From IMG/VR virus record IMGVR_UViG_3300020204_000036, positions 19,771 through 83,770 of that record: a DNA stretch of 64,000 nucleotides. One strand, written 5' to 3'. Below, one piece after another: positions 685 through 25,516 of the stretch. The position numbers were made by a program, and so were the translations under genes. A model generated the notes under the pieces. It saw only the letters and a program-made list of their open reading frames with translations, did not search any database and had not been told where the DNA came from. Every line of letters begins with the position of its first letter. Position 1 is the first letter of the stretch. The DNA is from a virus.

Positions 685-1149
685 ATGGCACAAGGAAATA
701 CTTATGGAGTTATTTTTCCATTTAGAGAAAGTCCTCTAAATTATTACTTCGGTTTGAGTGAAAACGCTGGTGATGAAATTAGAGCTAATCTTCTACATCT
801 ACTATTAACCGCAAAAGGAAGTAGATATTATAATCCTGATTTTGGAACTAGGATATATGAATATATTTTTGACCCACTTGATGGCGAAACTTTTGATGCT
901 ATAAAATCAGAAGTCCAACAGCAAATTGAAAAATACATACCAAACTTAACCATTAATGATATAAGTGTTGTGCCGTATTTGCAGTCTGACGAGGCGCCAG
1001 GAGAATTGAATCAAGATTTATTAGGAACTAGTGAGATATATAAAATTCCTGGTAAAGAAACACAAGAATATACCGCTAAACTTACTATAGATTATACTGA
1101 CGATAATAGTGCTTTTGGTTCAAGGGAATTTATAATACTTAATATATAA
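685..1149 (+). CDS. Baseplate wedge subunit, T4 gp25-like
   Basis: NLLHLLLTAKGSRYYNPDFGTRIYEYIFDP matches the gp25/GPW pattern. Confidence 0.9.
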   Translation: MAQGNTYGVIFPFRESPLNYYFGLSENAGDEIRANLLHLLLTAKGSRYYNPDFGTRIYEYIFDPLDGETFDAIKSEVQQQIEKYIPNLTINDISVVPYLQSDEAPGELNQDLLGTSEIYKIPGKETQEYTAKLTIDYTDDNSAFGSREFIILNI

Positions 1150-1150
1150 T

Positions 1151-2989: not shown

Positions 2990-3063
2990 ATCATTTATTT
3001 TATTTCTTAGATGATTAGTTTTTAATAAAAAACCTAAATTATCTATTTATTTTAAAATAATTA

Positions 3064-7917: not shown

Positions 7918-9625
7918 TCAAAATGAAATAAGAATAGTTCTCGGCTCTGAAAGAAGTGCTGGTAGTGTCGATAGAGATGTTTTGATACAACCACCATTGA
8001 TTGGGGATAGAAGAGAGTTGATTGAAGGAGATAGAAGTATTTTAGTAAATCAACAAACTGTTTTCAATCAAGAAAGACAATCAAGTGATAAGTTTAGAGT
8101 TGCTGGTAAAATTACAAACCTTTTTGATAACGTAGTTACCGGTAAAACTTCATATACGCCATTTAAAAATTATCTGTATTATACAAATGCCATAACAAAC
8201 GCCACTAATAATTCTAATTTTTGGGAAGGAAATCCACAATTTGATGAATTTACAATGGTAAGAGTGAGTGGTATCACAGGTCATATTCCTTTTGTGACTA
8301 AAAGTGCGTCATCATATAATTGGTCATTTTATATTAGTTATGCGTTTTCTAGCACTACTGCTCAAACAATGTCCTATACTGATGAAAAGTTTGGTGTAAC
8401 AAATAGTGGTTTTTTGGCTGGTAACGGTATACCTTATGTTTTGACTACAGGTAAGTTTAACGGTAAACAACTTGTTTATTTTTATTGTGGGACAATTCAC
8501 AACTTAAAAATTGGAGATTTTGTTGAACTATCGGTCCCGATTAACAATAGAACAATTTTTCAAGTTTATTCTTTAGGTGATGGAACCATTAATTCAGAAG
8601 AAAAAGTTTTTACGATTTATGATTTAAAATACCCACCCGTTGATGTTCAAACAGGTATATATGGAAATTTAAAAAGAATTACTGAAACTTCGAACTCTGC
8701 AGAAACAAAATCAATATACTACGTAAGATTACATAAAATAATAAAAAACAGCGAACAATGTAATATTGCTAAAATTGGTTTTGAAAACAATCCATTTGCT
8801 ATTGATAGAAAATTAGAATATTCAGCACTTACACCTAATCAAATACAAAGAGTTTCGATAAAAAATAATACTCAAAGTTTTTCATTCACATTTGACAAAG
8901 ATATAAAAATTGCCCCTTACATTGACAACAATGGAAAACCAATAACTGAATTATTTTTTACCGTGGTAAACAGAGGATATATGGGATGGTTTAACAAACC
9001 TTTTCCAAATCAAAATGGAACACTTAGCGGTATTGACATTGGATGGAACTTTAACTTTTTAGAAAATTCTGTTGATACTTGGTGGAATCACAGCAGTTCT
9101 TTGAACAAAGATAACATACCAACATTATCTTATTTCTATAACGGTCAAACTTTTTACTATAATGACATATTAAATGAAAATGATGTTATTTTTGGAGATT
9201 TTTGCGAATACAATTATATCGAGCAAAAAGAATATGTTTTGTCAAAAATAGTACATAAATATTCATTTAATGATATATTGTTTCAAACTTCAGGAACTCA
9301 AAACTATCCTGATGGTTATTTATATAACCCCCACCACTCAATACAAATTAGAGCTTTTAGCGATTATGTTGAAAATGGTGATAGACAATCTGTAGATGGT
9401 ATACCAGGATATTCTTGGTTTAGTGAGTTCAATAATAAATGGTTATGGAGAGATTTATATACATATGGGTTTATTGATAGTGACGGTATAGGGGTTAATA
9501 ACCCATTCATAAACGGAGCTCATTATCCATTTCTAAATTGTATATTTTTACAATACCCAATTCAAAGAAATAACAATACATTCTCTAATGAATATCAACA
9601 AATTATAAACGACGATTGTGAATAA
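7910..9625 (+). CDS. Putative virion structural protein
   Basis: 571 aa, overlaps neighbouring genes, aromatic/Asn-rich, inside the tail module. Confidence 0.55.
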   Translation: MSNQNEIRIVLGSERSAGSVDRDVLIQPPLIGDRRELIEGDRSILVNQQTVFNQERQSSDKFRVAGKITNLFDNVVTGKTSYTPFKNYLYYTNAITNATNNSNFWEGNPQFDEFTMVRVSGITGHIPFVTKSASSYNWSFYISYAFSSTTAQTMSYTDEKFGVTNSGFLAGNGIPYVLTTGKFNGKQLVYFYCGTIHNLKIGDFVELSVPINNRTIFQVYSLGDGTINSEEKVFTIYDLKYPPVDVQTGIYGNLKRITETSNSAETKSIYYVRLHKIIKNSEQCNIAKIGFENNPFAIDRKLEYSALTPNQIQRVSIKNNTQSFSFTFDKDIKIAPYIDNNGKPITELFFTVVNRGYMGWFNKPFPNQNGTLSGIDIGWNFNFLENSVDTWWNHSSSLNKDNIPTLSYFYNGQTFYYNDILNENDVIFGDFCEYNYIEQKEYVLSKIVHKYSFNDILFQTSGTQNYPDGYLYNPHHSIQIRAFSDYVENGDRQSVDGIPGYSWFSEFNNKWLWRDLYTYGFIDSDGIGVNNPFINGAHYPFLNCIFLQYPIQRNNNTFSNEYQQIINDDCE

Positions 9626-10460
9626 TAATTATTACAGATTTAGTAATACACCAAATGATACGTTCATTAACATACCTGTTGAAGTGACTTTCGATATGGC
9701 AGGAAGAAATGATGGGATAGTTGAATTTGAAAATAATATATTACAAGATTTAATAAACGGTATTGATGATTTTGAAACCACAAGGTTTGCAAATAAACCT
9801 TATCCACAAACCCCTGATAAAACCGATATAAACTATGATTTTTACTTTTTAGATTCAACCGTTCAAGTTACAATGGCAACTTCAAGTGATTGGTCTGTTG
9901 ATTACGCAAACGCGACATTCAAAGACTCTGAATTATTTTATTTTGCAAATTCATTTAAAGGTAGTTTTTTCAAATTGGATTTTTATGATACTAAAACAAA
10001 TGAAAATCAAAAAGCATATTTCAGTGTAATATTACCAACACAACAAGGACAAACAAGGGTTGGGTTTTTGGGGCCATTAAATAACCAAACACAAGTGAAA
10101 GTAAAAAAACCAAAAATGAAATTGGACTACACAGGCGCAGATAAGGAAGGGTTTTTTATTTATTGGTTAAAAGAAAGAGATTTTATTAACATTACAGAAC
10201 TTTATATGACTGCAAAGTTTTTTAACGCAAAAACAGGTCAATTTGTTAGATTTATGAATGAGCCACAATCCACATTCTCTGCGGGAAATAAATTTAATTT
10301 TGATAAATCACAATATTTTTATTATAAAGTGGAATTAGATTATACAAACTACGAATACCAAGTTTATAAAGAAATACCACAACAGAACCAATCCCCCACA
10401 TTATTTAGAGTTGGCGACACGACAAATGTCATAAAATGGTATGAATACGGAAACCCATAA
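9618..10460 (+). CDS. Putative virion structural protein
   Basis: 280-aa ORF coupled to its neighbours in the tail module. Confidence 0.55.
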   Translation: MNNNYYRFSNTPNDTFINIPVEVTFDMAGRNDGIVEFENNILQDLINGIDDFETTRFANKPYPQTPDKTDINYDFYFLDSTVQVTMATSSDWSVDYANATFKDSELFYFANSFKGSFFKLDFYDTKTNENQKAYFSVILPTQQGQTRVGFLGPLNNQTQVKVKKPKMKLDYTGADKEGFFIYWLKERDFINITELYMTAKFFNAKTGQFVRFMNEPQSTFSAGNKFNFDKSQYFYYKVELDYTNYEYQVYKEIPQQNQSPTLFRVGDTTNVIKWYEYGNP

Positions 10461-12489: not shown

Positions 12490-15437
12490 TGGCAAAACAA
12501 ATTTTTAGATATCCGCCAGCACCACCTGTAGGTAATTCAACCGCATTTGATAATATAGTTGGATTTCAATTGGTTACGGGTGGAGGTCTGACTCAAGGTA
12601 ATTTTCAATTTACTACCGCCATATATGAAAAGGTAAATAGAAATTTCGACTTAGGTGTTTTTTCACGACTTTATAATTTAGAAAATTTAAATATTGAAGA
12701 TATTGAACAAACCAAAAAAATAATTCAAAAAAACTTTGCGGTATATCCTAATTTTGATATTTCACAAATAACAAGTTTTACTCTCTATGGTTCGTTACAA
12801 AAAAGGTTGTCAGCATCAATTACAAAAATTATAAGTAATTTTCCAGCGGCATTAGACGTTAGAAATCAAACGCTTTCACTTACATCAGGATATACTGCAG
12901 TAAACATTACTTTCGACCCAATAGAGGATTTAACGACTTTTGATGTTAATGTTCCTTGGATTGTAAACCCATTTGATATTGATTACTCATCAAACGCTAG
13001 AAGAAATTTAGCCGTTAGACCTATCAAAACATCAAATTTTAGGGACCTAACAAATAATTTTGAGTTTTACAGTTTATATTTTTCTAGTGTAACGACAGAA
13101 TACCCGTTGGTTGATTTTATACCATCACAAACACTTACCGCAGGGACGATTACCATGACAGTAGTTGGTAATCCATTTTCAGGTGCAACCGCATCTAAAG
13201 ATAATTTAATTATAAAACCAAACACACAAAAAACCGCTGAGATATTTCAAAATGAATTTGATGAGGTTGAAGATTTTATTTTGAATAGAAATACCCAACC
13301 AAAATATACATCAACATTTCAGTATCCTTATTATGACTCGAACGAAGACTATACTTTAAAAATAGAAAGTGTTACTTGGTTTTTGAATGGTAGTTGGAAC
13401 TTAGATATAGTATCATCTCAGTTTGACACATACTTAGAAAAATTAAGTAGCATTGCTATGTTTTTGGATGATTATAAAACAAATTTAATATCAAGATTTT
13501 TAACTACAGGTTCCCTCAAAGACTTTGACACGCAAGACCAAAGAATGGAAAAAATCTTGCAAATATATGGTAGAAGTTTTGACGAAGTTAAAAAGTTTAT
13601 AGACGCTCTTGCAAATATGAACTCAGTAAACTATGTTGTTGGAAACGATATACCTTCACAACTTTTAGTAAATTTAGCACAAACACTTGGAGTTAATACA
13701 AATATTTCACCAATAAACAATGACCAATTATTAGAAGCGGTATTTAGTTCCCAAACAAACAAAATATATACAGGACAAGCTCAAAATCAAACCCCTTCAG
13801 AATTGAATTATCAATATTATAGAAATGTTATATTAAACTCGGCGTATATGTTTAAATCTAAAGGAACAAGAAATTCTTTAGAATATATAATGAGACTTAT
13901 TGGTGCTCCTGAGGCCATTACAGAATTTAATGAAGTAGTTTATTTAGTTGATTCTAAAATTAATGTCGACCAATTTAAAGAAAATTATGCTAAAATAAGT
14001 GGCGGAACTGTGTATGTTGAAAAACCGGCATTAGACCCAACAAACGTATTTTCAATTCATGGAAAAACATACACAGGTTTTACAACAGATGGAAATGTTG
14101 AAACGGTATCAACCACTTTTAATGATTATGGTATATCAAACGATGGCTACCCAAAATCGCCAAGGCAAACTGATGATTTCTTTTTTCAAAAAGGTTCAGG
14201 ATGGTTTGAGTCAAGCCCAAAACATAGGGCACCTCAAGTTGTTGATTTAGAAAACTCACAGTTAAATCAAAACGTACCAAGTGTTGTTACACAATTACAA
14301 CCACCATCTTTTGGTCAAGAATATTTAGATAGGTTCACAAAATTTCCTTTTTTAACTGAAGGATACACAATAACAAAAATATTTGACAATCAAAAGTCTT
14401 GGTCTGTTGATGACATTGGAAATAGAAAAAATAATTCCAACTTCAATGGTGTTGATTACACAATTACAAGTGATAAGCAAATTATAAATTCCAAAAACAT
14501 TGAATTGAATATCAATATGGGTCAAGGTTTGGTTTACGATGTTTGGGATATGTGTGTAAAATACGATTACCCAATACCAAATTCAGGATTAACTTCACCT
14601 TACCCATATCCTGGAGCCATTGATTGGACTTTTGTAAATCCAAAACCAAAAGAAAAAACCTTTTTTGAATTTGCTCAATCATTTTTTATGAACATGATTA
14701 ATGTTCGGAACAGACAAACAATATTTGACGGTAAGACAGGAGGATACCCAACTTTACAATCGGTATATTGGAAATATCTTCAGTCCCAACAAACCGTAGG
14801 CATTCCATCTAATCAATTTACATATCAAAAAATGATTGATTATACTTTGGGTATTGGTGATTATTGGCAAAGGTTATTGGAGCAATTAGTTCCAGCAACA
14901 ACACTTTGGCTTACGGGTCAAAAAATGGAAAACTCAATATTCCATAGGCAAAAATTTGTTTGGAGAAGACAAAGAGGTTGTCAATTTATTCAAGTAGAAT
15001 GTGTTCCTTGTACGTTCGATGGGCAGTTATTTGGGTATGATTGTATTGACCAAACTCTCTCTTGTGGTTTGAATATACAAAGTCCACAAACTTACTTGAC
15101 TCAAGTTTTAAATTCGGTAATTGCTCAAAGTGGTTATACACAATCAGACTGTGATTTAACAAGTATTGTTTCAGACTGGTTTATAGACTGTAGATTGGAT
15201 AATACCATATTGGTCCAAGAGCAATTTTATACGGGTTATGGATATTACGACACACCAACATTTGTTCAAATATCCGATGCTATTAATAATGAATTGGTTG
15301 GTTTATATAATCATGGTTTAAATTATTATTTTGCTGGTAAAACTTTGGTTATTAGTAATTCCACTTGTTATGATGACTTCACAAATAAAAAACTATACCT
15401 AAATATAGGAATAAACCTTAGCATAAATTGTAATTAA
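12489..15437 (+). CDS. Baseplate wedge protein, P2 gpI/T4 gp7-like
   Basis: IPSQLLVNLAQTLG and FKSKGTRNSLEYIMRLIG resemble the gpI-type KGT motif. Confidence 0.6.
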   Translation: MAKQIFRYPPAPPVGNSTAFDNIVGFQLVTGGGLTQGNFQFTTAIYEKVNRNFDLGVFSRLYNLENLNIEDIEQTKKIIQKNFAVYPNFDISQITSFTLYGSLQKRLSASITKIISNFPAALDVRNQTLSLTSGYTAVNITFDPIEDLTTFDVNVPWIVNPFDIDYSSNARRNLAVRPIKTSNFRDLTNNFEFYSLYFSSVTTEYPLVDFIPSQTLTAGTITMTVVGNPFSGATASKDNLIIKPNTQKTAEIFQNEFDEVEDFILNRNTQPKYTSTFQYPYYDSNEDYTLKIESVTWFLNGSWNLDIVSSQFDTYLEKLSSIAMFLDDYKTNLISRFLTTGSLKDFDTQDQRMEKILQIYGRSFDEVKKFIDALANMNSVNYVVGNDIPSQLLVNLAQTLGVNTNISPINNDQLLEAVFSSQTNKIYTGQAQNQTPSELNYQYYRNVILNSAYMFKSKGTRNSLEYIMRLIGAPEAITEFNEVVYLVDSKINVDQFKENYAKISGGTVYVEKPALDPTNVFSIHGKTYTGFTTDGNVETVSTTFNDYGISNDGYPKSPRQTDDFFFQKGSGWFESSPKHRAPQVVDLENSQLNQNVPSVVTQLQPPSFGQEYLDRFTKFPFLTEGYTITKIFDNQKSWSVDDIGNRKNNSNFNGVDYTITSDKQIINSKNIELNINMGQGLVYDVWDMCVKYDYPIPNSGLTSPYPYPGAIDWTFVNPKPKEKTFFEFAQSFFMNMINVRNRQTIFDGKTGGYPTLQSVYWKYLQSQQTVGIPSNQFTYQKMIDYTLGIGDYWQRLLEQLVPATTLWLTGQKMENSIFHRQKFVWRRQRGCQFIQVECVPCTFDGQLFGYDCIDQTLSCGLNIQSPQTYLTQVLNSVIAQSGYTQSDCDLTSIVSDWFIDCRLDNTILVQEQFYTGYGYYDTPTFVQISDAINNELVGLYNHGLNYYFAGKTLVISNSTCYDDFTNKKLYLNIGINLSINCN

Positions 15438-17743
15438 TGGCTTGTTATACAGGATTAACAGACGGTGTTTATTCTTACGTTGATTGTTGTGGCGTCACAA
15501 GAACAGGGGCGTCTTTAGGTGAAAGTATTTGTTTGGACGGAGCTTTTTCTGGTTCGTCTTTTGGTATATATATTGACGAAACAAGTTCATGTAGTCCTAC
15601 TTGTGAAGAACAACCTTTAGGAATATCATTTTCCGTAACAGGTGTTTGTTCAGACCCAATAGGGTCAGTAACTTTTTCACCTTTTGGTGGTATACCACCA
15701 TATACTATCGATAATGTAATACCTGGTGGTATAAGTGCTCAAACTTCGTCATCACCAATAACATTCACAGGTCTAACTGCTGACACTTATGTTTTTAGAT
15801 TAAACGACTCTTTGGGTTATGAAAATAATGAATTATACATAAATGTTATAATAACAGGTTGTTTTTATACCGATATTATAGAAGTCACAGGAACAAACTG
15901 TGGTGAAAATAACGGAACTTTAACTGTAAGTGCAGATTCACAATCATCGCCTTATACTTTGTTTTTGAAAAATAGTGGCACGACATTACAATCGCAAACA
16001 ACAACTATTTTTCCATATACTTTTACAAATCTTTCTGCGGATACCTATTTTGTTCAAGTTGTTGATTACGGATTATCCACAGCCACAACAGCAAATGCAA
16101 TTATTTCGGGAAGTAGTTCTTTAGATTTTGGTTTTTGGAAAGTAAATACATCAACTTGTGTTATTAACCAAGGTAAATTATCGGTAACTGGAGTCACAGG
16201 AACACCACCATATACATATCTTTGGAGTAATGGAGAAACAGGACAAACAATAACAGGACTTACTTTAGGTGAATATAGTTGCACAGTAACGGATGCGAAT
16301 GGTTGTGTGACAACAAAAAGTGAAACTATAGGTCAGGCCGACCCATTAGGTGTTGGGATTGTAACTTCAGAAAATCCTACATGTTTTTCATCAAATGGCA
16401 GTATAACTTTTACAATCACGGGAGGTAGTGTTCCATATTATTATTCGGCTAGCACTTCACAAGTTGGATACACATTAAGCAATACTTTAACACTTTCAGG
16501 TTTATCAAGTGGAAATTACAATTTAGAAATAACTGACGGTAATTTTTGTAAAGAAACAATAAGTGCTTTCATAAATGCTACAAATTCATTTTTTGTTGTT
16601 GATACGCAAGTTATTAATTCAAACTGTAGTCAACAACTAGGCTCAGTTTCGATTTCACTTCAAGGCTCTAATAACTTTTATACATATATTCTATCAGGAC
16701 AAACTAATGGTTTATACTACACTAATACAACACAAAGTTTAACAAGTTCATTTTCAGGATTAACAAATGACACTTATGATTTGACAATATCGGCAACAGG
16801 AACCAATTGTGCATATACAACTTCATTTATTGTATCTTCAACCGATAAGTTCAGTATAACAACATCAACAACTGGCTCGACTTGTTCTCAAAATGACGGA
16901 ATTTTATACATCGAGGTAAGTAGCGGATATACTTTACCGTTAGATTATATATTAAGTGATGGTCAGTCGGTAATTGATACATCCGCAACGGCATACACCT
17001 TCAATAATTTGGTTGCGGGTAGTTATTCAATAATAATAGTTGATGGCGACGGTTGTCAAATTGAAGAAAGAGTTACCATATCAACAGGAGGTAGTTTATT
17101 GTCTGCAATTTCAACAACACAATGTTATAACGGTCAAAACGGAACTGCTGAAATTTTGATTTATGCGGGAGAACCAACATTTACTTATGATTGGTCAAAT
17201 AATGTACCATCAGGACAAACTGGCTCTACAATATCAGGATTAACCGCCGGAACTTATTCAGTGGAAGTTTTAGATAGTAGCGGGTGTTCACAAATACATG
17301 ATTTTACAATAACTTGCTTTGGAAATAATGTTTCCACTTATTCACTTGTAACTCTTTGTGAAAATACTTTTACGACAACAGTGGGGGATAAACGAGGGTT
17401 TTTAGAAATGTTAAATGAAGGGTATATCGATGTAACAAGTGGATATACAGGTTGTAGTTTGAATACTGCTGAATTCATACTTGAGTTAGATATAAATGGT
17501 TCAGGATACACCCAAACATTTTATACTGCGACAACACTAAATGATGTCCCACAAGATATACTATGGCAATCAACAATAGAAAGTGTTTTAAGTGGTATCA
17601 CAGACATTAGTCTTTATACTATTAGTTTAACTGATAATACAATCCACATTGAGTCAAATTGTGAAGGAGATTATGACCCATTATCTGACGCCAATTTTAC
17701 TTTGGAATTAACAATCGAATACGATGTAACTTGTTTTACTTAG
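15437..17743 (+). CDS. Cys/Thr-rich tail appendage protein with SprB-like repeats
   Basis: Repeated C...G.I...TGGTPPYTY.WSNG..G.TI.GL..G.Y.V.V.D.NGC units. Confidence 0.7.
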   Translation: MACYTGLTDGVYSYVDCCGVTRTGASLGESICLDGAFSGSSFGIYIDETSSCSPTCEEQPLGISFSVTGVCSDPIGSVTFSPFGGIPPYTIDNVIPGGISAQTSSSPITFTGLTADTYVFRLNDSLGYENNELYINVIITGCFYTDIIEVTGTNCGENNGTLTVSADSQSSPYTLFLKNSGTTLQSQTTTIFPYTFTNLSADTYFVQVVDYGLSTATTANAIISGSSSLDFGFWKVNTSTCVINQGKLSVTGVTGTPPYTYLWSNGETGQTITGLTLGEYSCTVTDANGCVTTKSETIGQADPLGVGIVTSENPTCFSSNGSITFTITGGSVPYYYSASTSQVGYTLSNTLTLSGLSSGNYNLEITDGNFCKETISAFINATNSFFVVDTQVINSNCSQQLGSVSISLQGSNNFYTYILSGQTNGLYYTNTTQSLTSSFSGLTNDTYDLTISATGTNCAYTTSFIVSSTDKFSITTSTTGSTCSQNDGILYIEVSSGYTLPLDYILSDGQSVIDTSATAYTFNNLVAGSYSIIIVDGDGCQIEERVTISTGGSLLSAISTTQCYNGQNGTAEILIYAGEPTFTYDWSNNVPSGQTGSTISGLTAGTYSVEVLDSSGCSQIHDFTITCFGNNVSTYSLVTLCENTFTTTVGDKRGFLEMLNEGYIDVTSGYTGCSLNTAEFILELDINGSGYTQTFYTATTLNDVPQDILWQSTIESVLSGITDISLYTISLTDNTIHIESNCEGDYDPLSDANFTLELTIEYDVTCFT

Positions 17744-17953
17744 ATGCCATACTCAATCGACATAACAAGTTTAACAGGAGGAACTACTCCAATTGATTAT
17801 TATGTTTGTGACCAAAACGGTAACAACTGCTCACTTCTTGGGACATCATTAGGTGTTTATGTTTTGAGCGCATATTACAGTAGTGCAAGTTCATTAATAA
17901 TAAGGGCTATTGACAATAATGGTTGTGAAACATTTCATGAAGTAAATTGTTAA
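17744..17953 (+). CDS. Small Cys-containing virion protein (paralog 1 of 3)
   Basis: ITSLTGGTTPIDYYVCD...IDNNGCE, shared with the 17957 and 22047 ORFs. Confidence 0.7.
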   Translation: MPYSIDITSLTGGTTPIDYYVCDQNGNNCSLLGTSLGVYVLSAYYSSASSLIIRAIDNNGCETFHEVNC

Positions 17954-17956
17954 ATT

Positions 17957-18181
17957 ATGATAATAGAAATAACAGGAGTCACAAGCGGAACAAGTCCTTA
18001 TGATGTATATATATGTGACCCAACAAATGTATCTTGTTTTTATGTATCGGGAGTAACATCTATTCCACCAAATGTTGTAATTGATTCATCAATTTTTTTT
18101 CCAAATGAGGATATTGTTTATATAAAAGTCATAACTGCAGATGGATGTCTAGAAGAAATTCAAATAGACTGTAGTAGTTAA
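17957..18181 (+). CDS. Small Cys-containing virion protein (paralog 2 of 3)
   Basis: ITGVTSGTSPYDVYICD...ITADGCL. Confidence 0.7.
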   Translation: MIIEITGVTSGTSPYDVYICDPTNVSCFYVSGVTSIPPNVVIDSSIFFPNEDIVYIKVITADGCLEEIQIDCSS

Positions 18182-18356
18182 CTACTACAAGAAAATGGAT
18201 TTATAATCAAAATAACTTGATAACTTTATAAAATACCAAGCGGCCTCATGAAATGTGTCCGCAATTCTATCTTTAATTGTAACAATAAATAAAGTGAGTT
18301 AATATGTACTTTATTTAGTTTTTTTATTTTTTACTTTTTTACAAAAGTTGTTATTT

Positions 18357-19598
18357 ATGAAAATATTTGTTCAAATTGCGTCATACCGCGACCCCGAACT
18401 ATTACCAACAATTAGAGATTGTATCAATAAAGCAAAACATCCTCAAAATCTAACATTTGGCATATGTTGGCAAAGAGATGAAAATGAATCATTAGAAGAA
18501 TTTCAAAACGACGAAAGGTTCACAATTTTGGACTATCATTGGACTAAAAGTAAAGGTTTATGTTGGGCCAGAAGTCTCATTCAAAAACTATGGAAAGGTG
18601 AAGAGTACACAATGCAATTAGACTCACATCATCGGTTTTTACAAGATTGGGATGTGGAATTAATTGAAATGATGAAATTAACTGGTGTTGAAAAGCCAAT
18701 AATCACTACTTATGCAGGAATGTATGACCCAAAAACTAATACGTTATTAAATGAAGAGCCATATAAATGCACGGCAAGAAAGTTTTCAGAATACGGCACA
18801 ATTTTCTTTTATCCTGAACAAATACCAAATTGGCAAAAATTAGAAAAACCAATACCGGCAAGATTTGTAAGTGGTCATTTCTTTTTTACATTAGGAAAAC
18901 ATTGTGAAGAATACAAGTACGACCCAAATATATATTTCGCGGGAGATGAAATAAGTTTATCAATTAGGTCTTATACGTTAGGTTATGATTTATTCCACCC
19001 TCATAAGACAGTTGTTTGGCATGAATATACAAGAATAGGTAGAATTAAACATTGGGATGATTTTAATGAAGAAAATGTAAAAAAAGGATTAATTGAAAAA
19101 GAATGGCATGTAATTAATTCAGAAGGGTTGGTTAGATTAAGACATATGTTACAAGAAGAAGATAATAATATTGATTTAGGGGAATTTGGTTTAGGTGATG
19201 TAAGGTCGCATAGGGATTATGAGTTATATGCTGGTATTGATTTTAAAAAAAGAAGATTACACCCCAAAACATTAAAAGGAACCGACCCACCAATAAACGA
19301 CGACTCAAATTGGTTTGAAACTAAACTAAATAAATTCACATACAATATAGTTGTACCAAGAATTGAGGCGCCAGTTGATGATTATGATTTTTGGGCCGTT
19401 TCATTTTTAGATGAATTCGGTGGGGAAATATTTAGACAAGATGCCGATGAAGAAGAATTAAAGACTTGTTACGCAGTTAAAGGTGATTACGTTCAAATTA
19501 AAAGAACTTTTATGGTTGATGATTCTGCAAAATCTTGGTCGATATGGTTACACCATAAAGAAAACGGTTGGGTTAAACAAATAACAGGAGAAATATGA
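18357..19598 (+). CDS. GT60-like (Skp1/polypeptide alpha-GlcNAc transferase-like) glycosyltransferase with a C-terminal extension
   Basis: IFVQIASYRDPEL..T, SKGLCWAR, MQLDSHHRF, YDPNIYFAGDEISLSIRSYTLGYDLFHP; ATG at 18357. Confidence 0.85.
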   Translation: MKIFVQIASYRDPELLPTIRDCINKAKHPQNLTFGICWQRDENESLEEFQNDERFTILDYHWTKSKGLCWARSLIQKLWKGEEYTMQLDSHHRFLQDWDVELIEMMKLTGVEKPIITTYAGMYDPKTNTLLNEEPYKCTARKFSEYGTIFFYPEQIPNWQKLEKPIPARFVSGHFFFTLGKHCEEYKYDPNIYFAGDEISLSIRSYTLGYDLFHPHKTVVWHEYTRIGRIKHWDDFNEENVKKGLIEKEWHVINSEGLVRLRHMLQEEDNNIDLGEFGLGDVRSHRDYELYAGIDFKKRRLHPKTLKGTDPPINDDSNWFETKLNKFTYNIVVPRIEAPVDDYDFWAVSFLDEFGGEIFRQDADEEELKTCYAVKGDYVQIKRTFMVDDSAKSWSIWLHHKENGWVKQITGEI

Positions 19599-20392
19599 AA
19601 ATAGGTGCATTTTATCAATCGGGGCATAAACTTGTTGCTTGTTATAAAGCACTAGAACAATTAAGAAATATTTATCCAAAAATTCCAATCGTATTATATG
19701 AAGATGGTTCTGAAATATTGGAACCTGTTGCAAAAAAATTTAATTGTGATTATAATTGGATTGAACAACAAGGATTTAATTATCCTCACTCTGGTAGGGT
19801 ATTTTCAAGTGAAAACGGACCTTTAGATTGGTTAAAAAGAATTTATGACGCTTGTATAACAACATTAAAAGATGTGGATTGGGTTATACATTATGAAGAT
19901 GATGTTTGGTGTAAACGTGAAATAACAAAACCACCAACATTCGATATTGCAGGAGCAAATGGACCTATGTACACACCTGAACTTTACAAGTATTTAAAAA
20001 ATAAATTCAATATAACAGACGAATCACGACATTATTGGAGTGAGATTGGTTCATTAGAAGGTTATGGTGCTTGTGGGGGTGCAATATTCAATCGTAAAAA
20101 ATTTATCGAAATATATCACAGATTGAACGAAGTCCCGTGGGGTGAAATATATCACTTAGATACAAGACCAATTGAGTGGTGTGATGCAACACTTTCATTT
20201 CTTTTTCAATTTTTCGGTTACACAAGCGGTGTTTGGGATGATTGGGCAGAATACGATTCAAAAAATCAAGGAGATTGGTGGGATAAAAGTGGTTGGTCAA
20301 TACCTATGGAAAAACAACCTGATGTTGCTTTTATTCATGCGTATAAACACTTTTATAACTATCTCCCTGAAGAAATAAACCTTGAGTTGTAA
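19595..20392 (+). CDS. GT-A fold glycosyltransferase
   Basis: IVLYEDGS, DWVIHYEDDV (DxD-like), ACGGAIFN, WCDATLSFLF, AFIHAYK. Confidence 0.7.
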   Translation: MKIGAFYQSGHKLVACYKALEQLRNIYPKIPIVLYEDGSEILEPVAKKFNCDYNWIEQQGFNYPHSGRVFSSENGPLDWLKRIYDACITTLKDVDWVIHYEDDVWCKREITKPPTFDIAGANGPMYTPELYKYLKNKFNITDESRHYWSEIGSLEGYGACGGAIFNRKKFIEIYHRLNEVPWGEIYHLDTRPIEWCDATLSFLFQFFGYTSGVWDDWAEYDSKNQGDWWDKSGWSIPMEKQPDVAFIHAYKHFYNYLPEEINLEL

Positions 20393-20437
20393 ATAAAATA
20401 AACATAAGCTTATTTATATTATAAAGTTAATTTTTCT

Positions 20438-22045
20438 ATGGCAGATATTCTTTTAGAAAGTTGTTGTTATCCTGGGTTACAATATTATACCGATGAGTCA
20501 AATTGGACGGGAGCCACTTCTGCAGTGACAACGGTTTTTTCTGTTACTTATGATTCTGTCGTAGTTTCAGGTTGTTATACAATAGTATCTGCGTTCACTT
20601 CCGGATTTACATCAACTAGCATAGTCCCTGATGGGGTATATACTCAAGTAACAGGATGCACAGACCCATTTTGTGCAACAGGACAATGTTGTTCAAATGA
20701 GTATTGTGTTCAAATTAACGATGTAAATTTTTCAGCATATAGTGGTAGTTATGTTGTGGCCGGAAGTTATAATTCCTTACCTTTTTTTACAGGTGGAACA
20801 CAACCTGGATACATTTATAAAGGACCAACAAAATGGTGTTTAGGAACTTCTGCAGGCACAGGTTGTTATTTCTTTGGGCAAGACCCAACTCTATCACCTT
20901 GTCCAAATTTATACACGGACTTGTTTTATGAAGGTCCTTGTGGAACACCACTACCAACTCCAACGCCCGTTTGTGATATATTTGATTTTGAAGTTGACGT
21001 GTTATGTGTGACACCAACTCCGACTCCAACACCAACACCAACACCAACTCCGACCCCTACACCCACACCATCACCAACACCTGATATATGTTCAGGATTT
21101 ACTGTTGATATTACGGTTAGTGGAACAACACCAACTCCTACGCCAACACCTACTCCCACCCCTACTCCAACGCCAACAATTAATTTAACGGGAGAAACGG
21201 TAACATTTACAATAGATGATGGAAACTTTGTATGTTTTAGAGTTAAAGAGTTAAGAGATTGTAATGAAAACGTAACTTATTATGTTTCGGGTTCTTTAGA
21301 TATATCAGGAACACCAATAACAACAGGTCAGACGTTCTTAGGAGTTATTAATGACCAATTGAAATGTGCAACTTACATACAAGATACAACTGCAAGTCCA
21401 AATGCTACAATTAAACTTGTTGTTTCGGCATACACAGGATGTACGGTTTGTCCAACACCAACACCTACACCAACACCTACACCAACTCCCACACCAACTC
21501 CGACACCTACACCAACTCCAACGCCTACATTCGCGCCAGGAACTTACTTTGTGTTTACATCTTGTACTACAACATCGATGATTACACAAACAGCTTATCC
21601 ACCAACTAATCTTGACCCAGGAGAAGTAATTAGAGATTATTCTGGAAATTGTTATAGTTATGTAGGATATTTTATAAATTATATTCCACCTTCAGGTTAT
21701 ATTGTGGTAAATGAAGACAGATTTACAGCGACAACAGCAACAACATACGTTGATTGTGCTGAATGTTTATTAGTCGAACCGCTAGTTGTAACATTTAATA
21801 CTTGGATTGGAAGTGGGGCATATTCGGTAAATTGCCCTGGATGCCAATTAACTAACTTTGGTCTACAAACAATATTCTATACACACCCATCGGTTAATCA
21901 AATACAAACAGGAGTGACCGTGTATAGTAATTCGTCATTGTTATATCCGTTAACAATTGACTATATCAGATACGGAAATAAAATTTATAGTGTTAATAAT
22001 AGTGGTGTTATCACTGAGTTTTGCACAGTAAACGGAGTTTGTTAA
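20438..22045 (+). CDS. Cys-rich virion protein with three (Thr-Pro)n mucin-like linkers
   Basis: TPTPTP tracts separate Cys-rich modules; TATTTAT upstream. Confidence 0.75.
   Translation: MADILLESCCYPGLQYYTDESNWTGATSAVTTVFSVTYDSVVVSGCYTIVSAFTSGFTSTSIVPDGVYTQVTGCTDPFCATGQCCSNEYCVQINDVNFSAYSGSYVVAGSYNSLPFFTGGTQPGYIYKGPTKWCLGTSAGTGCYFFGQDPTLSPCPNLYTDLFYEGPCGTPLPTPTPVCDIFDFEVDVLCVTPTPTPTPTPTPTPTPTPTPSPTPDICSGFTVDITVSGTTPTPTPTPTPTPTPTPTINLTGETVTFTIDDGNFVCFRVKELRDCNENVTYYVSGSLDISGTPITTGQTFLGVINDQLKCATYIQDTTASPNATIKLVVSAYTGCTVCPTPTPTPTPTPTPTPTPTPTPTPTPTFAPGTYFVFTSCTTTSMITQTAYPPTNLDPGEVIRDYSGNCYSYVGYFINYIPPSGYIVVNEDRFTATTATTYVDCAECLLVEPLVVTFNTWIGSGAYSVNCPGCQLTNFGLQTIFYTHPSVNQIQTGVTVYSNSSLLYPLTIDYIRYGNKIYSVNNSGVITEFCTVNGVC
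21011..21529 (+). repeat. Three degenerate ACN-CCN coding tandem repeats (~21011-21082, ~21128-21178, ~21452-21529)
   Basis: 6-bp period with variable third positions, i.e. a protein-level TP repeat. Confidence 0.9.
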
Positions 22046-22046
22046 T

Positions 22047-22337
22047 ATGCCAACAATTGTCACAATAAATACAATAACTTCAGGAACAAGCCCATATGAT
22101 GTTTGGGTGTGTGATGCATGTGGAATTTATGGCACTTGTCAATATATAGACACATTTATAACAACACCCTATTCATTTACATTACCTGTTTCCTTTGAAT
22201 CTATGGATAGTTATGTTGTTAAAGTAATTGATGATAATGGTTGTGAATTCTGTTATGATGGACTTTGTAATTATAAACAGTTTCAAGACTTAATATGTTT
22301 TGAATTCGAAGACGGAATACCTTATGATTTTCAATAA
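22047..22337 (+). CDS. Small Cys-containing virion protein (paralog 3 of 3)
   Basis: INTITSGTSPYDVWVCD...VIDDNGCE. Confidence 0.7.
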   Translation: MPTIVTINTITSGTSPYDVWVCDACGIYGTCQYIDTFITTPYSFTLPVSFESMDSYVVKVIDDNGCEFCYDGLCNYKQFQDLICFEFEDGIPYDFQ

Positions 22338-22362
22338 ACTATGATATATATAAAATAAAAAA

Positions 22363-23940
22363 ATGGCAACTTTAACATCGAGGACATTGACTACTGGGGC
22401 ATCACTAAATGACCTTATACACATTGTAATAACGGGAGACACATCACAAAGTCCAAGTGGCTCATCATATAAGGCATCATTAAGTCAGTTGGTGCCTTTG
22501 TTTGGAGGGTCACCTGACGTATATTTAACAGGGGGGACTGCGGTTTCTTCAGGAGGAACAATTACGTTTACAAATAGTACAGGTGGAACCTTTACAGTTT
22601 CAGGGCTTACAACACCATTTACAGGTGGTTCGGGAAATTGTATTACAAGTTTTTACACTGAAAATATTCATGCATGTGTTGATGAAATAACAGTACATAA
22701 TAGAGTTCAATCAACAGGTTCTGACGCTCAATCACTTTTAAGTTTTGCTTTTGGTGGAAATGTTCAGGCTTTAAACAGATACACACATGCCGAAGGAATT
22801 GATACTATAGCCTCTGGAGATACTTCACATGCCGAGGGCTCAGGAACTAAATCATTTGGACAATTTTCACATAGTGAAGGTACTGATACAAGAGCAGGTA
22901 CAAACACTGCATATTTGGCGACAGGTTTAACTTCAGGTGTTTTTTATTTGGACAGTACCTACGGTAATGTTAGCGCAAACTTTACCTCTGATTTATTTAT
23001 ATGGATTCACGATTTACCATTTGGTGGTTCTTTGACAGATAGCTTTAAAAAAGTGTCAGGAAGTACCTTTAGTGGCGGTCAAACTTTAGTTTATTTGTAC
23101 GATACAGGTTTGACTGCAACAAATAACTTATACATAGGAGATACTGCAATACCTGATTTGTGGCAGGGTAATGAGACTGCTGGAGGTAGAAGTGCATCTG
23201 TTAAAGGTTTTGCGTCAGGTGCTATTGGCACAAACTCATTTGCTTCAGGACAAGGTAGTTTTTCAATGGGTTGGAATTCATTTACGGCTAATAAAGGGAA
23301 TAAGGCGTTTGGAAATGCATCGACAGCTTTTGGAACATCAAATAATGTCTACGGAACAAGTTCAGTCTCTTTTGGAGACTCAAACATATTGGAAGGAGCG
23401 TCTTCAATAACAACAGGAAATAGTAATGAAGTATATGGTGATTTTTCATTCGCAGGCGGTGCTGACAATATTATAAATGGACAAACATCTTTTGTATTTG
23501 GTCAACAAAATACAACAAATAATGAACAAGGTGCTATTTTAGCGGGCAATAATAATCTTGTACAGAGCGGAGACACTACCAATTCAACAATTTTAGGTGG
23601 GAAAAATAACACAATAACTGGCTTGGCACCAAGTGACCCCGTATATGACTCTTCAGTAATAGGTGGTTCGGGCAACACTGTACAATCTTATAGTTCGGTG
23701 ATTGTTGGAGGTGAAGGAAATACTTTGACAGGTAGTAGAAGCGTTGTCCTTGGTGGTACTGGAATAAGTGCTACCGCATCAGACACAGCATACGCCCCAA
23801 ATATTGTTTTAGCATTTTCAGGAACCCCATCAGGTAGTTTAGACACATTAGGAGAACCTGGTTCTTTACTATGGGACGATAGTTATTTTTACTATAAAGA
23901 CAACACAGGTTGGAAAAGATTAAGCGGAGCAACTTGGTAA
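22363..23940 (+). CDS. Tail fibre/adhesin with YadA-head-like beta-roll repeats
   Basis: SHAEG..T.A.G repeats, S.I.GG..N repeats, C-terminal G.LLWDDSYFYY...GWKR. Confidence 0.75.
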   Translation: MATLTSRTLTTGASLNDLIHIVITGDTSQSPSGSSYKASLSQLVPLFGGSPDVYLTGGTAVSSGGTITFTNSTGGTFTVSGLTTPFTGGSGNCITSFYTENIHACVDEITVHNRVQSTGSDAQSLLSFAFGGNVQALNRYTHAEGIDTIASGDTSHAEGSGTKSFGQFSHSEGTDTRAGTNTAYLATGLTSGVFYLDSTYGNVSANFTSDLFIWIHDLPFGGSLTDSFKKVSGSTFSGGQTLVYLYDTGLTATNNLYIGDTAIPDLWQGNETAGGRSASVKGFASGAIGTNSFASGQGSFSMGWNSFTANKGNKAFGNASTAFGTSNNVYGTSSVSFGDSNILEGASSITTGNSNEVYGDFSFAGGADNIINGQTSFVFGQQNTTNNEQGAILAGNNNLVQSGDTTNSTILGGKNNTITGLAPSDPVYDSSVIGGSGNTVQSYSSVIVGGEGNTLTGSRSVVLGGTGISATASDTAYAPNIVLAFSGTPSGSLDTLGEPGSLLWDDSYFYYKDNTGWKRLSGATW

Positions 23941-23941
23941 T

Positions 23942-25516
23942 ATGGGATTATTAAGTGGAAATAGTTGTAATATAATAACACTCCTACCTTTGGGGTTAGA
24001 TTGTGACAGCATTAATGCATCAACACCCGATTCCACAAATGGTCTTATAACTCTTTATGTTACAGGAGGAACACCACCATATAATATTTCTTGGAGCAAT
24101 GGGGCCCAAGGGTCTTTAATAACAAACTTACTACCTGGCGATTATACCGCAACCGTTATAGATTATTATGGTGATTTTACAGGAAGGACAACTTGTAGTG
24201 TTGACTATGATAGTTTTTACTTAGAACAATTTGAAGATTGCCAAAATTCAGGAAACTTTGTTTATTATGTTGCAGATTTACCATCTACTTTTGTTGATGG
24301 TAAAGTTTATAGTTTAACAACACAAACAGGTTGTTGGACACATAGTGGTCAAACACTTTATACAGGACAATCATATGTAAATAATTTTGCAGTCGTGTCA
24401 ACAGGGCCATTTGATACTTGTTCAGATTGTTTACCACCACCAGTACCACCTCCGGTTTATCCACAAAATCTTTGTTTTGAATATACACCATCACCGAATA
24501 CAACTTATTTAACTACCTACTCGAGTGGGTCTACAATTAATGGTTATCCATCTTGGACAAGTTCAACTACAACAATGTATTATAATACAGGAAACACAAG
24601 ATGGGAAATTAGTGGATGGACTAATTCAGGAGTTCCTGCATTACTTCAACCCACAACACCACCAACAGGTAATTGGTCACTACTTGGAACACTACCTGCA
24701 ACGATATTTGTTAGCACAGGAGTTTGTACAACACCACCACTTACATTATCAGTAACAACAACACAACCGACTTGTTCAAATACAAGTAATGGTGTGATAA
24801 ACGTTACAGGTTATGGTGGAGTTCCTTCATACACTTACTCAATAAATGGGGTAAATTATCAAGTATCAAATGTATTTTTAGGTTTGGGGGCTGGAAATTA
24901 TACAGTTTACATTAAAGATACTAACAATACGGTAACAGCACAATCGGTTACGTTGACGCCTCAAAACGCATTCACTAATTACGTTTTGAATTTAAGTTTG
25001 ACGCCTTTGGCAAATCAAATAAATGTTGGTACAACGGTAACGAAAACTTGGTATTATCAAATAAATGTAACGCCAACACTTCCAGCAGGTCGAACAGTAA
25101 ATTTCACAATTAATACAGCGGTTGGTTTCACGGGGAAAACATTCATAACAAACTTACCAATAATTACAAACTCAATAACAGCAACAACTACAGGAAGTGC
25201 AACATTAAGCTCTCCTGTTAACTCAACTGTTATATCAACAGGATTAAGTAGACCATCTTGTTTAACTTCATTTATTTATTACAGTTCTTACACAAATACT
25301 TATACTGCGACCATTTCATCGGGAGGTATTATTAATGGAGTTATCACACAATTTATTGATACACCAACAATGGAGTTTAGAGGATGTGAATTAGAAGGAT
25401 ATATATTGGATTCCGTTTCAATTACAAATGTTACTATAACTCCATCAACATGTAGTGGTATAAGTGTAAATGGTTCGCCTAAAACAATGCCTTTACAAAA
25501 AATAGGTTTGTCTTAA
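23942..25516 (+). CDS. Tail appendage protein with SprB-like repeats
   Basis: VTGGTPPYNISWSNG..ITNLLPGDYTATVID; GGVPSYTYSING...FLGLGAGNYTVYIKD. Confidence 0.7.
   Translation: MGLLSGNSCNIITLLPLGLDCDSINASTPDSTNGLITLYVTGGTPPYNISWSNGAQGSLITNLLPGDYTATVIDYYGDFTGRTTCSVDYDSFYLEQFEDCQNSGNFVYYVADLPSTFVDGKVYSLTTQTGCWTHSGQTLYTGQSYVNNFAVVSTGPFDTCSDCLPPPVPPPVYPQNLCFEYTPSPNTTYLTTYSSGSTINGYPSWTSSTTTMYYNTGNTRWEISGWTNSGVPALLQPTTPPTGNWSLLGTLPATIFVSTGVCTTPPLTLSVTTTQPTCSNTSNGVINVTGYGGVPSYTYSINGVNYQVSNVFLGLGAGNYTVYIKDTNNTVTAQSVTLTPQNAFTNYVLNLSLTPLANQINVGTTVTKTWYYQINVTPTLPAGRTVNFTINTAVGFTGKTFITNLPIITNSITATTTGSATLSSPVNSTVISTGLSRPSCLTSFIYYSSYTNTYTATISSGGIINGVITQFIDTPTMEFRGCELEGYILDSVSITNVTITPSTCSGISVNGSPKTMPLQKIGLS

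Follow-up and report, generated by a model that had tools for sequence, protein, structure and literature searches.

A GT60-family glycosyltransferase gene beside a Thr-Pro-tract protein gene in jumbo phages: a probable phage-encoded O-glycosylation cassette

To our knowledge, protein glycosylation by phage-encoded enzymes has been documented for very few phages. Virion glycosylation is known in mycobacteriophages (Freeman et al., 2023, as cited in PMC12619734) and has been suggested for the Xanthomonas jumbo phage XacN1, whose virions were reported to contain 'at least two glycoproteins' with the glycosyltransferases (GTs) of the phage as their possible source (PMC5852040). In protists, family GT60 comprises polypeptide alpha-N-acetylglucosaminyltransferases (pp-alpha-GlcNAc-transferases) that are related to family GT27, and one of them, Gnt1, acts on the hydroxyproline (Hyp) of Skp1 after the action of PhyA (PMC6939170, PMC8724618). 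The next steps in the synthesis of the Skp1 glycan are the addition of beta-1,3-galactose (Gal) and alpha-1,2-fucose (Fuc) (PMC6939170). Here we describe three co-oriented genes, delimited by open reading frame (ORF) calls, at positions 18357-22045 of a viral DNA stretch of 64,000 nucleotides, referred to below as the window, which corresponds to positions 19,771 to 83,770 and thus to the final 64 kb of the 83.8-kb IMG/VR record IMGVR_UViG_3300020204_000036. The genes encode a GT60-family enzyme (GT1), a second glycosyltransferase of predicted GT-A fold (GT2) and a Cys-rich, Ser/Thr-rich protein of 535 amino acids (aa) that carries three Thr-Pro (TP) tracts (TP535). The reading that best accommodates the evidence presented here is that GT1 glycosylates virion proteins with TP tracts or, more broadly, virion proteins rich in Ser, Thr and Pro, and we place its probability at about 0.68.

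The assignment of GT1 (18357..19598, plus strand) is based on Pfam, PHROG and a structure model. Translation from the ATG at 18357 gives 413 aa, which is the length of the closest homologues; a TTG further upstream, at 18348, could serve as an alternative start and would give a form of 416 aa. The protein matches the Pfam profile PF11397 'GlcNAc' with an E of 1.8e-64 and 218.9 bits (cut-off 21) over profile positions 95-351 plus an N-terminal stretch, a six-frame search of the genome agrees, and phrog_24687 'glycosyltransferase' is matched over its full length (E 1.1e-105). A phmmer search of GT1 against PDB sequences returned nothing at E<=1. The AlphaFold2 (AF2) model, built from a 40-sequence alignment with a mean predicted local distance difference test (pLDDT) of 94.6, consists of an N-terminal GT-A catalytic domain of ~325 aa and a beta-rich C-terminal domain (~328-415) that is extra in the jumbo-phage form. 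When the model was compared with solved structures, the first ~45 rows listed by Foldseek were all polypeptide N-acetylgalactosaminyltransferases (ppGalNAc-Ts), and an independent VIA-align search gave Z 22.3 for mouse GalNAc-T1 (278 residues aligned, root-mean-square deviation 3.5) and Z 20.4 for Toxoplasma TgGalNAc-T3, the next GT-A enzyme scoring 16.1 or below. Residues D92 and H94 of a DSH motif and H225 (numbering of the 416-aa form) are invariant in the 40-sequence alignment, and by analogy with GT27 we take them to be the DxH and His metal ligands. With the family match, the GT27-like fold and the DxH motif followed by a downstream His all in place, we assign GT1 to family GT60, its predicted fold being nearest to that of the mucin-initiating ppGalNAc-Ts. 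No transmembrane-like segment was found in the sequences of GT1 or GT2. By tblastn, matches to GT1 were present in 4 of 50,697 GenBank phage records. Giant proteins of 1600-2460 aa with three or four tandem GT60 domains were also observed (P0241-P0243, P0249 and P0256).

The second gene, GT2 (19595..20392, plus strand; 265 aa), was assigned by AF2 model and fold search. Its start overlaps the stop of GT1 by 4 bp (ATGA), an overlap through which it is predicted to be translationally coupled to GT1. For this protein no Pfam family was found at E<=0.01 and no PHROG match, phmmer against PDB sequences gave chance-level rows only, and its family of at least 124 mostly metagenomic proteins had a Pfam domain in 0 of the 120 homologues listed. 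The model (pLDDT 92.2) has 363 PDB matches at E<=0.001, those listed being GT-A enzymes, and the residues E36, E101, D103, H248 and K251 are invariant, so that the GT-A fold comes together with an acidic DXD-type motif (E101 and D103, within EDDVW). Foldseek ranks GT6 first. The top VIA-align rows are the N-terminal domain of CHSY3 (Z 14.3), Drosophila C1GalT1 (12.8) and B3GalT5 (12.1-12.3), with Manic Fringe (11.9-12.0) and B3GalT6 and B3GNT2 (~11.6) as further GT31-type rows; outside GT31, hyaluronan synthase scores 11.6-12.1, LgtC 11.4-11.7 and other GT-A enzymes 11-12. The GT31 sequence models Galactosyl_T and Fringe did not match GT2. The predicted structure leans to GT31 (C1GalT1, B3GalT5, Fringe), a leaning that is not settled and serves only as a lead, the differences in Z being just 1-2. 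In the ESM Atlas, GT2 was found in unnamed clusters and in one viral cluster in which 22% of the members carry PF00535, a weak lead.

The third gene, TP535 (20438..22045, plus strand), was defined as an ORF and by its composition, which includes 28 Cys and 25.6% Ser+Thr. Three (TP)n tracts are located between globular parts of the protein: tract 1 at aa 192-215 (TPTPTPTPTPTPTPTPTPTPSPTP; 21011..21082), tract 2 at aa 231-247 (21128..21178) and tract 3 at aa 339-364 (21452..21529), all on the plus strand and identified by sequence and TRF. A mixture of synonymous codons encodes the tracts, and a pure DNA-microsatellite origin was rejected on this ground. TP535 is the sole ORF with a ([ST]P)>=4 tract in the 83.8-kb record and the gene directly after the GT pair. 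In syntenic relatives its homologue also comes directly after GT1/GT2 and keeps the three tracts, with varying lengths, and TP535-like domains were found inside proteins of 900-2100 aa in more distant relatives. In other phages, the TP-tract neighbours of GT60 match virion-structural PHROGs, minor tail and tail-fibre families, a ConA-like lectin domain and the crAss muzzle C-terminal domain. TP535 is the proposed acceptor and, judging from its sequence and context, a putative fibre or appendage protein of the virion. A preliminary description of this DNA, made from the letters alone, had reported two overlapping glycosyltransferase genes, the first GT60-like and the second of GT-A type, that interrupt a tail/fibre module just before a Cys-rich protein with three TP tracts. 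The ORFs and domains bear out this layout in every particular, the PF11397 match together with the ppGalNAc-T-like model upholds the first enzyme assignment and the predicted fold upholds the second.

Evidence that GT1 and TP tracts belong together came from the analysis of 45 viral loci centred on GT1 homologues 52-97% identical to it. A (TP)>=4 tract was present in 41 of them, always at 3 kb or less from GT1; the four misses were three contigs of 4.5-6.2 kb and L035, on whose contig TP tracts lie ~10 kb from GT1. The gene order s74-GT1-(GT2)-TP535-s96 is common to most of the 45 loci, GT2 being present in 24, and most of the syntenic loci are related, so that their counts are not independent. 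When 80 loci were anchored on p737 instead, a TP tract was found in all 53 that contained GT1, and tracts of at least 8 repeats occurred in 40 of these 53 vs 3 of the 27 without it, one of the three having GT1 just outside the locus. Independent arrangements were also observed. In L031, L042 and L046 an unrelated TP-rich protein is encoded directly upstream of GT1, in G017 the upstream neighbour is a TP protein of 1472 aa with 49 Cys, and in L038 a TP-rich protein is convergent and downstream of GT1.

Further, five large related genomes of 214-295 kb, two of them near-complete, were scanned whole. In G004 (292 kb, 99% complete) all 27 (TP)5 matches fall at 60.8-64.3 kb, with GT1 at 62.8-63.9 kb, and the (TP)5 matches of G005 (19), G006 (22) and G007 (1) are all within ~8 kb of GT1; a reversed-pattern control of these scans gave zero matches. 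In G008 (295 kb, 98% complete) GT1 is located at 79 kb, ~170 kb from the p737 fibre module, and the sole (TP)4 match of the genome lies in an ORF of 1314 aa with 20 Cys directly upstream of GT1. The complete genome of XacN1 (385 kb) encodes a GT60 homologue, ORF334, that is 37.9% identical to GT1 over its full length, and the sole (TP)5 match of this genome is in frame in the 3313-aa ORF325, 9 kb away. Among the seven genes between ORF325 and the GT60 gene, one is annotated as GT9 and one as a carbamoyltransferase, and five have no assigned function.

The same linkage was approached from the TP side. Viral contigs were scanned for (TP)8 and, as a control, for (AP)8; the scans were samples of at least 120 stretches each with uneven flanks of 1-15 kb, in which GT60 homologues were sought with a hidden Markov model built from the GT1 alignment. 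Among the matches listed, to which all counts from these scans refer, a GT60 homologue was found in 9 of 120 (TP)8 vs 0 of 120 (AP)8 stretches (Fisher p=0.0033), and for 8 of these nine the distance to the closest tract, on the same strand, was 0.2-2.8 kb. The nine enzymes represent at least six lineages with no more than 49% identity between them, and seven are just 26-35% identical to the GT1 of the window. The co-occurrence of GT60 and TP-repeat genes in related phages, which the preliminary description had proposed as a check, was thus found in both directions and in several unrelated arrangements.

Of the nine GT60-bearing (TP)8 loci, six (L212, L242, L271, L279, L297 and L304), all among the seven outside the clade of the window, contain a 2-oxoglutarate (2OG)-Fe(II) oxygenase of family PF13640. 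These oxygenases match solved prolyl 4-hydroxylases (P4Hs) from Bacillus anthracis (the L279 protein, E 1.5e-27 to 8e-28), human (C-P4H alpha-2), Chlamydomonas and PBCV-1 (5c5t), and their homologues were present in 11 of 120 (TP)8 vs 0 of 120 (AP)8 loci. A radical-SAM/SPASM enzyme is encoded in four of the oxygenase-bearing GT60 loci and an NAD-dependent epimerase in L297. In small phages the genes form operons (L279:484-4208, L297:5350-9619, L242:838-5801, L304:3291-6341 and L271:763-4099) consisting of a TP-tract protein, one or two P4H homologues, often a radical-SAM/SPASM enzyme, and a GT60 of ~290-330 aa. From their gene content, these operons resemble the hydroxyproline-GlcNAc (Skp1-type) pathway in a phage form. 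The adjacency of a P4H, a GT60 and a Pro-rich repeat protein follows the enzyme order of the Skp1 pathway and has no easy explanation other than that the repeat protein serves as substrate, and in the lineages that pair GT60 with a P4H beside TP proteins, Hyp-O-glycosylation of the Skp1 type would be likely. The Skp1-type pairing of a P4H with GT60 was found in these other phage lineages and not in the clade of the window, where a PF13640 search of the window record (G000), G004 (99% complete), G005 and G006 gave no match. Because no prolyl-hydroxylase-type gene was found there, a Thr-O linkage is likelier than a hydroxyproline-O linkage in this clade. A Hyp linkage was considered for it and set aside on the absence of PF13640 from G000 and G004, although a host enzyme might supply the hydroxylation.

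Besides the relatedness of the syntenic loci and the unsettled leaning of GT2, several observations weigh against a general rule that GT1 acts on TP tracts. GT1 adjoins Ser/Thr-rich proteins in G009, with no (TP)4 tract in 165 kb, and over 115 kb separates the TP5 matches of Xoo-sp13 from its GT. A group of phages designated class B has no TP tract in the 8-kb flanks of GT1-GT2, and of its records G001 (97 kb, 58% complete) has zero ([ST]P)4 matches and G002 has TP3-4 proteins ~70 kb from GT1. TP535 homologues with tracts of up to 11 repeats are encoded in L112, L113 and L122 with no GT1 on the 30-kb contigs, and G010 (89 kb) encodes a giant TP protein and no GT1; these four are fragments (10-30% complete), so that GT1 may lie elsewhere. 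Short TP tracts also occur in relatives in which GT1 is non-adjacent. In the sampled scans, 111 of the 120 (TP)8 loci had no GT60 in the stretch examined, which means that TP tracts do not need GT60 and are therefore often plain linkers or served by other enzymes, and the (AP)8 control stretches were higher in GC (median 0.47 vs 0.41 for (TP)8). From the genes, phage-encoded O-glycosylation of fibre proteins is judged probable.

Some of these observations would suit a different location of the sugars, in which virion proteins are glycosylated elsewhere and the TP tracts serve as linkers only. Sugars would then be attached to other Ser/Thr-rich stretches of TP535 or its neighbours, or to prolines hydroxylated by a host enzyme. 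In G009, G011 and G012, GT1 adjoins proteins of 22-29% Ser+Thr whose ORFs lack a (TP)4 tract, TP tracts are scarce or absent in class-B genomes, and the glycans of mycobacteriophages are on the C-terminal ends of capsid and tail-tube proteins (cited in PMC12619734). That tracts of at least 8 repeats track an adjacent GT1 among the p737-anchored loci, and that TP tracts are the feature common to otherwise unrelated GT60 neighbours, makes this alternative unlikely.

The class-B phages (L058, L059, L065, L066 and L076-L078) also bring in DNA as a possible acceptor. Their GT1-GT2 pair lies between FolE/QueC/QueE-like genes and a DNA polymerase, and genes for Hsp20 and GroEL are close by; QueC and QueE were identified by motif in ORF translations only, and FolE by PHROG. 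QueC-, QueE- and GTP-cyclohydrolase-like genes of the 7-deazaguanine pathway are found just upstream of GT1-GT2 at L066:2120-5856, L058:2207-5259 and L035:2347-5407. The DNA polymerase of L066 (L066:8861-12492) is split into ORFs of 575 and 297 aa with ORFs of 229 and 99 aa between them, and that of its relative L058 (L058:9488-12061) is a single ORF of 857 aa; insertion of a mobile element, or an interruption of the intein type, may account for the split. If GT1 and GT2 glycosylated phage DNA, producing hypermodified bases for restriction evasion, the adjacency of TP535 would be incidental. Hypermodification of DNA is a known activity of phage GTs, those of GT-A type among them (bioRxiv 10.1101/2023.12.21.572611), GT1 of class-B and Xanthomonas jumbo phages is near genes for DNA polymerase, RNase H and NUDIX and near dCTP-deaminase-like or 7-deazaguanine genes, and G004 has a gene of PF00303 (ThyA/hydroxymethylase family). 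This gene is, however, ~227 kb from GT1, and the family is absent from G000, G005, G006 and G008, the last being 98% complete and carrying a GT1 cluster. The described DNA-modifying GT-A enzymes are TarP/JGT-like and cluster with hydroxymethylases or with TET plus a C5-methyltransferase (C5-MT) (bioRxiv 10.1101/2023.12.21.572611), and neither a ThyA-family hydroxymethylase nor a 5-methylcytosine dioxygenase with a C5-MT stands beside GT1 in the window. A TET/JBP (PF12851) search of five records gave no match, and counts little as it had no positive control. The fold of the GT1 model is that of a polypeptide GalNAc-transferase and not of T4 beta-GT, TarP scoring Z 14.8 vs 22.3 for GalNAc-T1. 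Since DNA modification would also leave the two-way TP linkage and the co-located prolyl hydroxylases unexplained, it is regarded as highly improbable.

Comparison among relatives showed that GT1 is the constant partner of the cassette, and that the gene after it may be replaced, missing or multiplied. The slot after GT1 is empty in, for example, L015-L017; it holds an HtrL/YibB-family protein in L116, a GT34-like protein of 567 aa in L194, an HtrL+GT2 fusion in L193 and a carbamoyltransferase in L192, XacN1 and Xoo-sp13. GT60-HtrL/YibB fusions in single polypeptides exist as well (P0278 and P0282). Downstream of GT1 in G008 (L189 = G008:70000-89999; locus 1460-9970, minus strand) there is a run of glycan genes encoding a GT10-like protein, a weak DUF1647-like match, GT11, GT25, an unknown protein of 291 aa, GT61 and a 482-aa uridine-kinase/PRK-domain protein, which can be described as a fucosyltransferase-rich glycan cluster. 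A constant GT1 with a variable second gene is the pattern expected of a conserved initiator with diversifying extension.

A second GT1 subtype of 411-416 aa, 41-51% identical to the GT1 of the window, takes the place of the latter in relatives whose gene order is otherwise kept (L098, L114, L116, L120, L127, L129, L135-L143, L148 and L156). A gap of ~0.8 kb comes after it in most of these loci and, in L098, L116, L129 and L136, holds a gene of 260-272 aa, of which the L116 one was profile-scanned and is HtrL/YibB-like; several genes follow in L139, and the TP535 homologue comes directly after the enzyme in L114, L120, L135, L137 and L148. In these relatives, gene order and identity suggest that the enzyme cassette was exchanged while the acceptor gene stayed.

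The variable companions raise the question of whether the GTs build or alter a glycan that is not on protein, such as host envelope polysaccharide or lipopolysaccharide (LPS), altered to exclude superinfection or to mask receptors, or else a glycan that is free or lipid-linked. The TP proteins would then be mere neighbours in a variable fibre region that gathers accessory genes. Several companions are of families often met in the synthesis of LPS and polysaccharides (GT25, GT9, GT11, HtrL/YibB and carbamoyltransferase), and the PHROGs category of phrog_24687 is 'moron, auxiliary metabolic gene and host takeover'. Fibre modules are, as a matter of general knowledge, hot spots of gene exchange. 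Nevertheless, GT1 of G008 is away from the p737 fibre module and still adjoins a TP protein, the (AP)8 control had no GT60 in its 120 stretches, and neither GT1 nor GT2 has a membrane segment; neither a flippase nor a polymerase was seen in those clusters that were read. The substrates of prolyl 4-hydroxylases are proteins, and XacN1 virions are reported to hold glycoproteins (PMC5852040). Modification of the host envelope glycan thus fits soluble enzymes and the TP linkage poorly, and a non-protein acceptor is judged decidedly unlikely.

Taken together, these data are consistent with GT1-GT2-TP535 being a phage-encoded cassette for protein O-glycosylation, of which we infer the acceptor, donor, linkage, virion location and benefit. 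The cassette would act in the host cytoplasm on the fibre or appendage proteins of the phage itself, before or during assembly. GT1, a predicted soluble and retaining GT-A enzyme of GT60 with a ppGalNAc-T fold, would put the first sugar on the TP tracts of TP535, and probably also on further neighbours that are rich in Ser, Thr and Pro, using a UDP-N-acetylhexosamine (UDP-HexNAc) as donor (N-acetylglucosamine by family precedent). GT2, most like the beta-1,3 transferases of GT31, would add the second sugar. The result would be extended, protease-resistant and glycan-covered linkers, or 'mucin-like stalks', on receptor-binding structures, and with the extending enzymes swapped the glycan would vary between phages. 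The preliminary description had likewise proposed that the first enzyme primes the tracts and the second extends the glycan, with stiff stalks or a glycan shield on the virion as the putative outcome. The constancy of GT1, the swapping, absence or multiplication of the second gene and the GT60-HtrL fusions agree with such a predicted order. Its O-glycosylation reading stands as far as the enzyme types and the TP linkage carry it, and is qualified by class-B GT1-GT2 pairs without TP tracts, by TP tracts without GT1 and by short tracts that are not adjacent.

A wider view, which we put forward tentatively and at somewhat less than even odds, is that tailed phages have a portable and modular O-glycosylation toolkit, homologous to the eukaryotic mucin-type and Skp1 pathways, that makes hypervariable glycan stalks. 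Its parts would be an initiator of family GT60, optionally joined by a prolyl 4-hydroxylase and a radical-SAM enzyme, and swappable extenders (GT31-like, HtrL, GT34, GT10/GT11 fucosyltransferase-like and carbamoyltransferase), which together would turn the (TP)n linkers of receptor-binding fibres into mucin-like stalks. Arms-race selection would then act on the glycan and not on the protein tip alone, the glycan would help to set host range or would protect against proteases and defences, and phages would represent a large, overlooked reservoir of polypeptide HexNAc-transferases.

Regarding its genomic context, the window record has a completeness of 29% (CheckV), which implies a jumbo phage of roughly 290 kb; close relatives extend to 292 kb with 99% completeness, and the phage may be a member of the moraphage lineage (PMC12619734). 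The cassette sits in the baseplate/fibre module of this jumbo-phage fragment, with baseplate-wedge genes (window 685-2989) and large unassigned proteins upstream, and the module is followed downstream by a RuvC-like gene and a primase. SprB-repeat proteins identified by Pfam are encoded on both flanks, one of 768 aa at window 15437-17743 (E 8.4e-15) and one of 524 aa at window 23942-25516 (E 1.4e-08). SprB repeats are known from the gliding-motility adhesin of Bacteroidota. Their presence in two tail-module proteins is a hint of a Flavobacteria-type host and of adhesin-like fibres, and together with a GC content of 30-37% it suggests that the host belongs to the Bacteroidota. The GT genes thus lie among structural genes, with wedge genes upstream, SprB and fibre-like proteins on both sides and a conserved synteny. 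Three small paralogous Cys-containing proteins of 69, 74 and 96 aa, which share an N-terminal motif, flank the cassette (window 17744-17953, 17957-18181 and 22047-22337). In relatives their homologues are sometimes of 172-570 aa and then have TP tracts of their own (e.g. TP x14 in L020 and TP x16 in L070). A blastn search of the 3.7-kb cassette region against the 50,697 phage records found no match. In window 17700-22500, sigma-70 promoter candidates (34 vs 24.6±6.3 in shuffles) and terminator candidates (3 vs 2.3) were not above shuffles, and no transcript boundaries are therefore claimed.

If the proposed activity of GT1 is true, the host-recognition fibres of a whole range of abundant aquatic phages bear O-glycans, the carriers being the ~290-kb phages of the window clade, Xanthomonas/Stenotrophomonas jumbo phages and several small phages. 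The enzyme lineage would be the same as that which starts mucin glycosylation in protists and animals, and some lineages would have the hydroxylase-then-GT60 order of the Skp1 oxygen-sensing pathway. A GT60 gene plus a TP tract would provide a simple sequence rule to predict glycosylated virion proteins, and the variation of extender GTs between close relatives would be explained. For glyco-engineers, these would be soluble enzymes of the bacterial cytoplasm that may glycosylate a short repetitive tag. A direct test is possible in cultured XacN1, for which virion glycoproteins have already been reported (PMC5852040). A literature search that left subscription journals mostly uncovered found no paper linking GT60/PF11397 to phage TP or PT tracts. 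The GT60/ppGalNAc-T-like initiator lineage, the TP-tract acceptor rule in fibre-like proteins, the breadth across phage lineages, the swappable extenders and the prolyl hydroxylase in some lineages appear to be new.

Among the described systems, the mycobacteriophages resemble the proposed cassette in that phage GTs modify the structural proteins of the phage itself, which is proposed here from genes. The mycobacteriophage enzymes are reportedly of other GT families, and their sites are said to be the C-terminal ends of capsid and tail-tube subunits. The cassette differs from them in its GT60/ppGalNAc-T-like initiator, in the TP tracts of fibre-like proteins as proposed sites, and in its aquatic hosts, probably Bacteroidota. 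XacN1 (ORF334/ORF328) has a GT60 homologue 9 kb from the only TP-tract protein of its genome, and its companion enzyme is a carbamoyltransferase and not GT2. The main text of the XacN1 paper does not name GT60, TP tracts or ORF325, the last with 0 occurrences (PMC5852040). With metazoan mucin-type glycosylation, in which a GT27 ppGalNAc-T is followed by the GT31 enzyme C1GalT1, the cassette would share a two-step logic, similar folds and a Thr/Pro-rich acceptor. It differs in that it would work in the cytoplasm and not in the Golgi, in that GT1 belongs to GT60 and not GT27, with no ricin-type lectin domain detected, and in that GT2 has no Pfam GT31 match and leans to GT31 weakly. The proposed cytoplasmic glycosylation of virion surface proteins by virus-encoded enzymes also recalls the capsid glycans of chloroviruses and the fibrils of mimivirus, and the phage oxygenases match the prolyl 4-hydroxylase structure of PBCV-1 (5c5t). 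These giant viruses infect eukaryotes and use other GT families for their self-glycosylation. A further parallel is found in the protist GT60 enzymes, of which Gnt1 of Dictyostelium and Toxoplasma acts on Hyp of Skp1 and the pp-alpha-GlcNAc-transferases of T. cruzi and Dictyostelium act on Thr/Ser of mucin-like domains. Like Gnt1, GT1 matches PF11397 and is predicted to be a soluble GT-A enzyme with a DxH motif, and its closest solved fold is that of the GT27 ppGalNAc-Ts, as expected of GT60 (PMC8724618). Unlike the protist enzymes, it is encoded by a phage, has a C-terminal beta domain of ~90 aa extra and has as its proposed acceptor the long (TP)n tract of a virion protein. In contrast to the Skp1 system, no hydroxylase was found in the window clade, whereas in some other phage lineages GT60 is accompanied by a prolyl 4-hydroxylase, in the way that PhyA is paired with Gnt1 (PMC6939170). 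By analogy only, a GT31-like GT2 and the GT11 gene of G008 echo the beta-1,3-Gal and alpha-1,2-Fuc steps of the Skp1 glycan.

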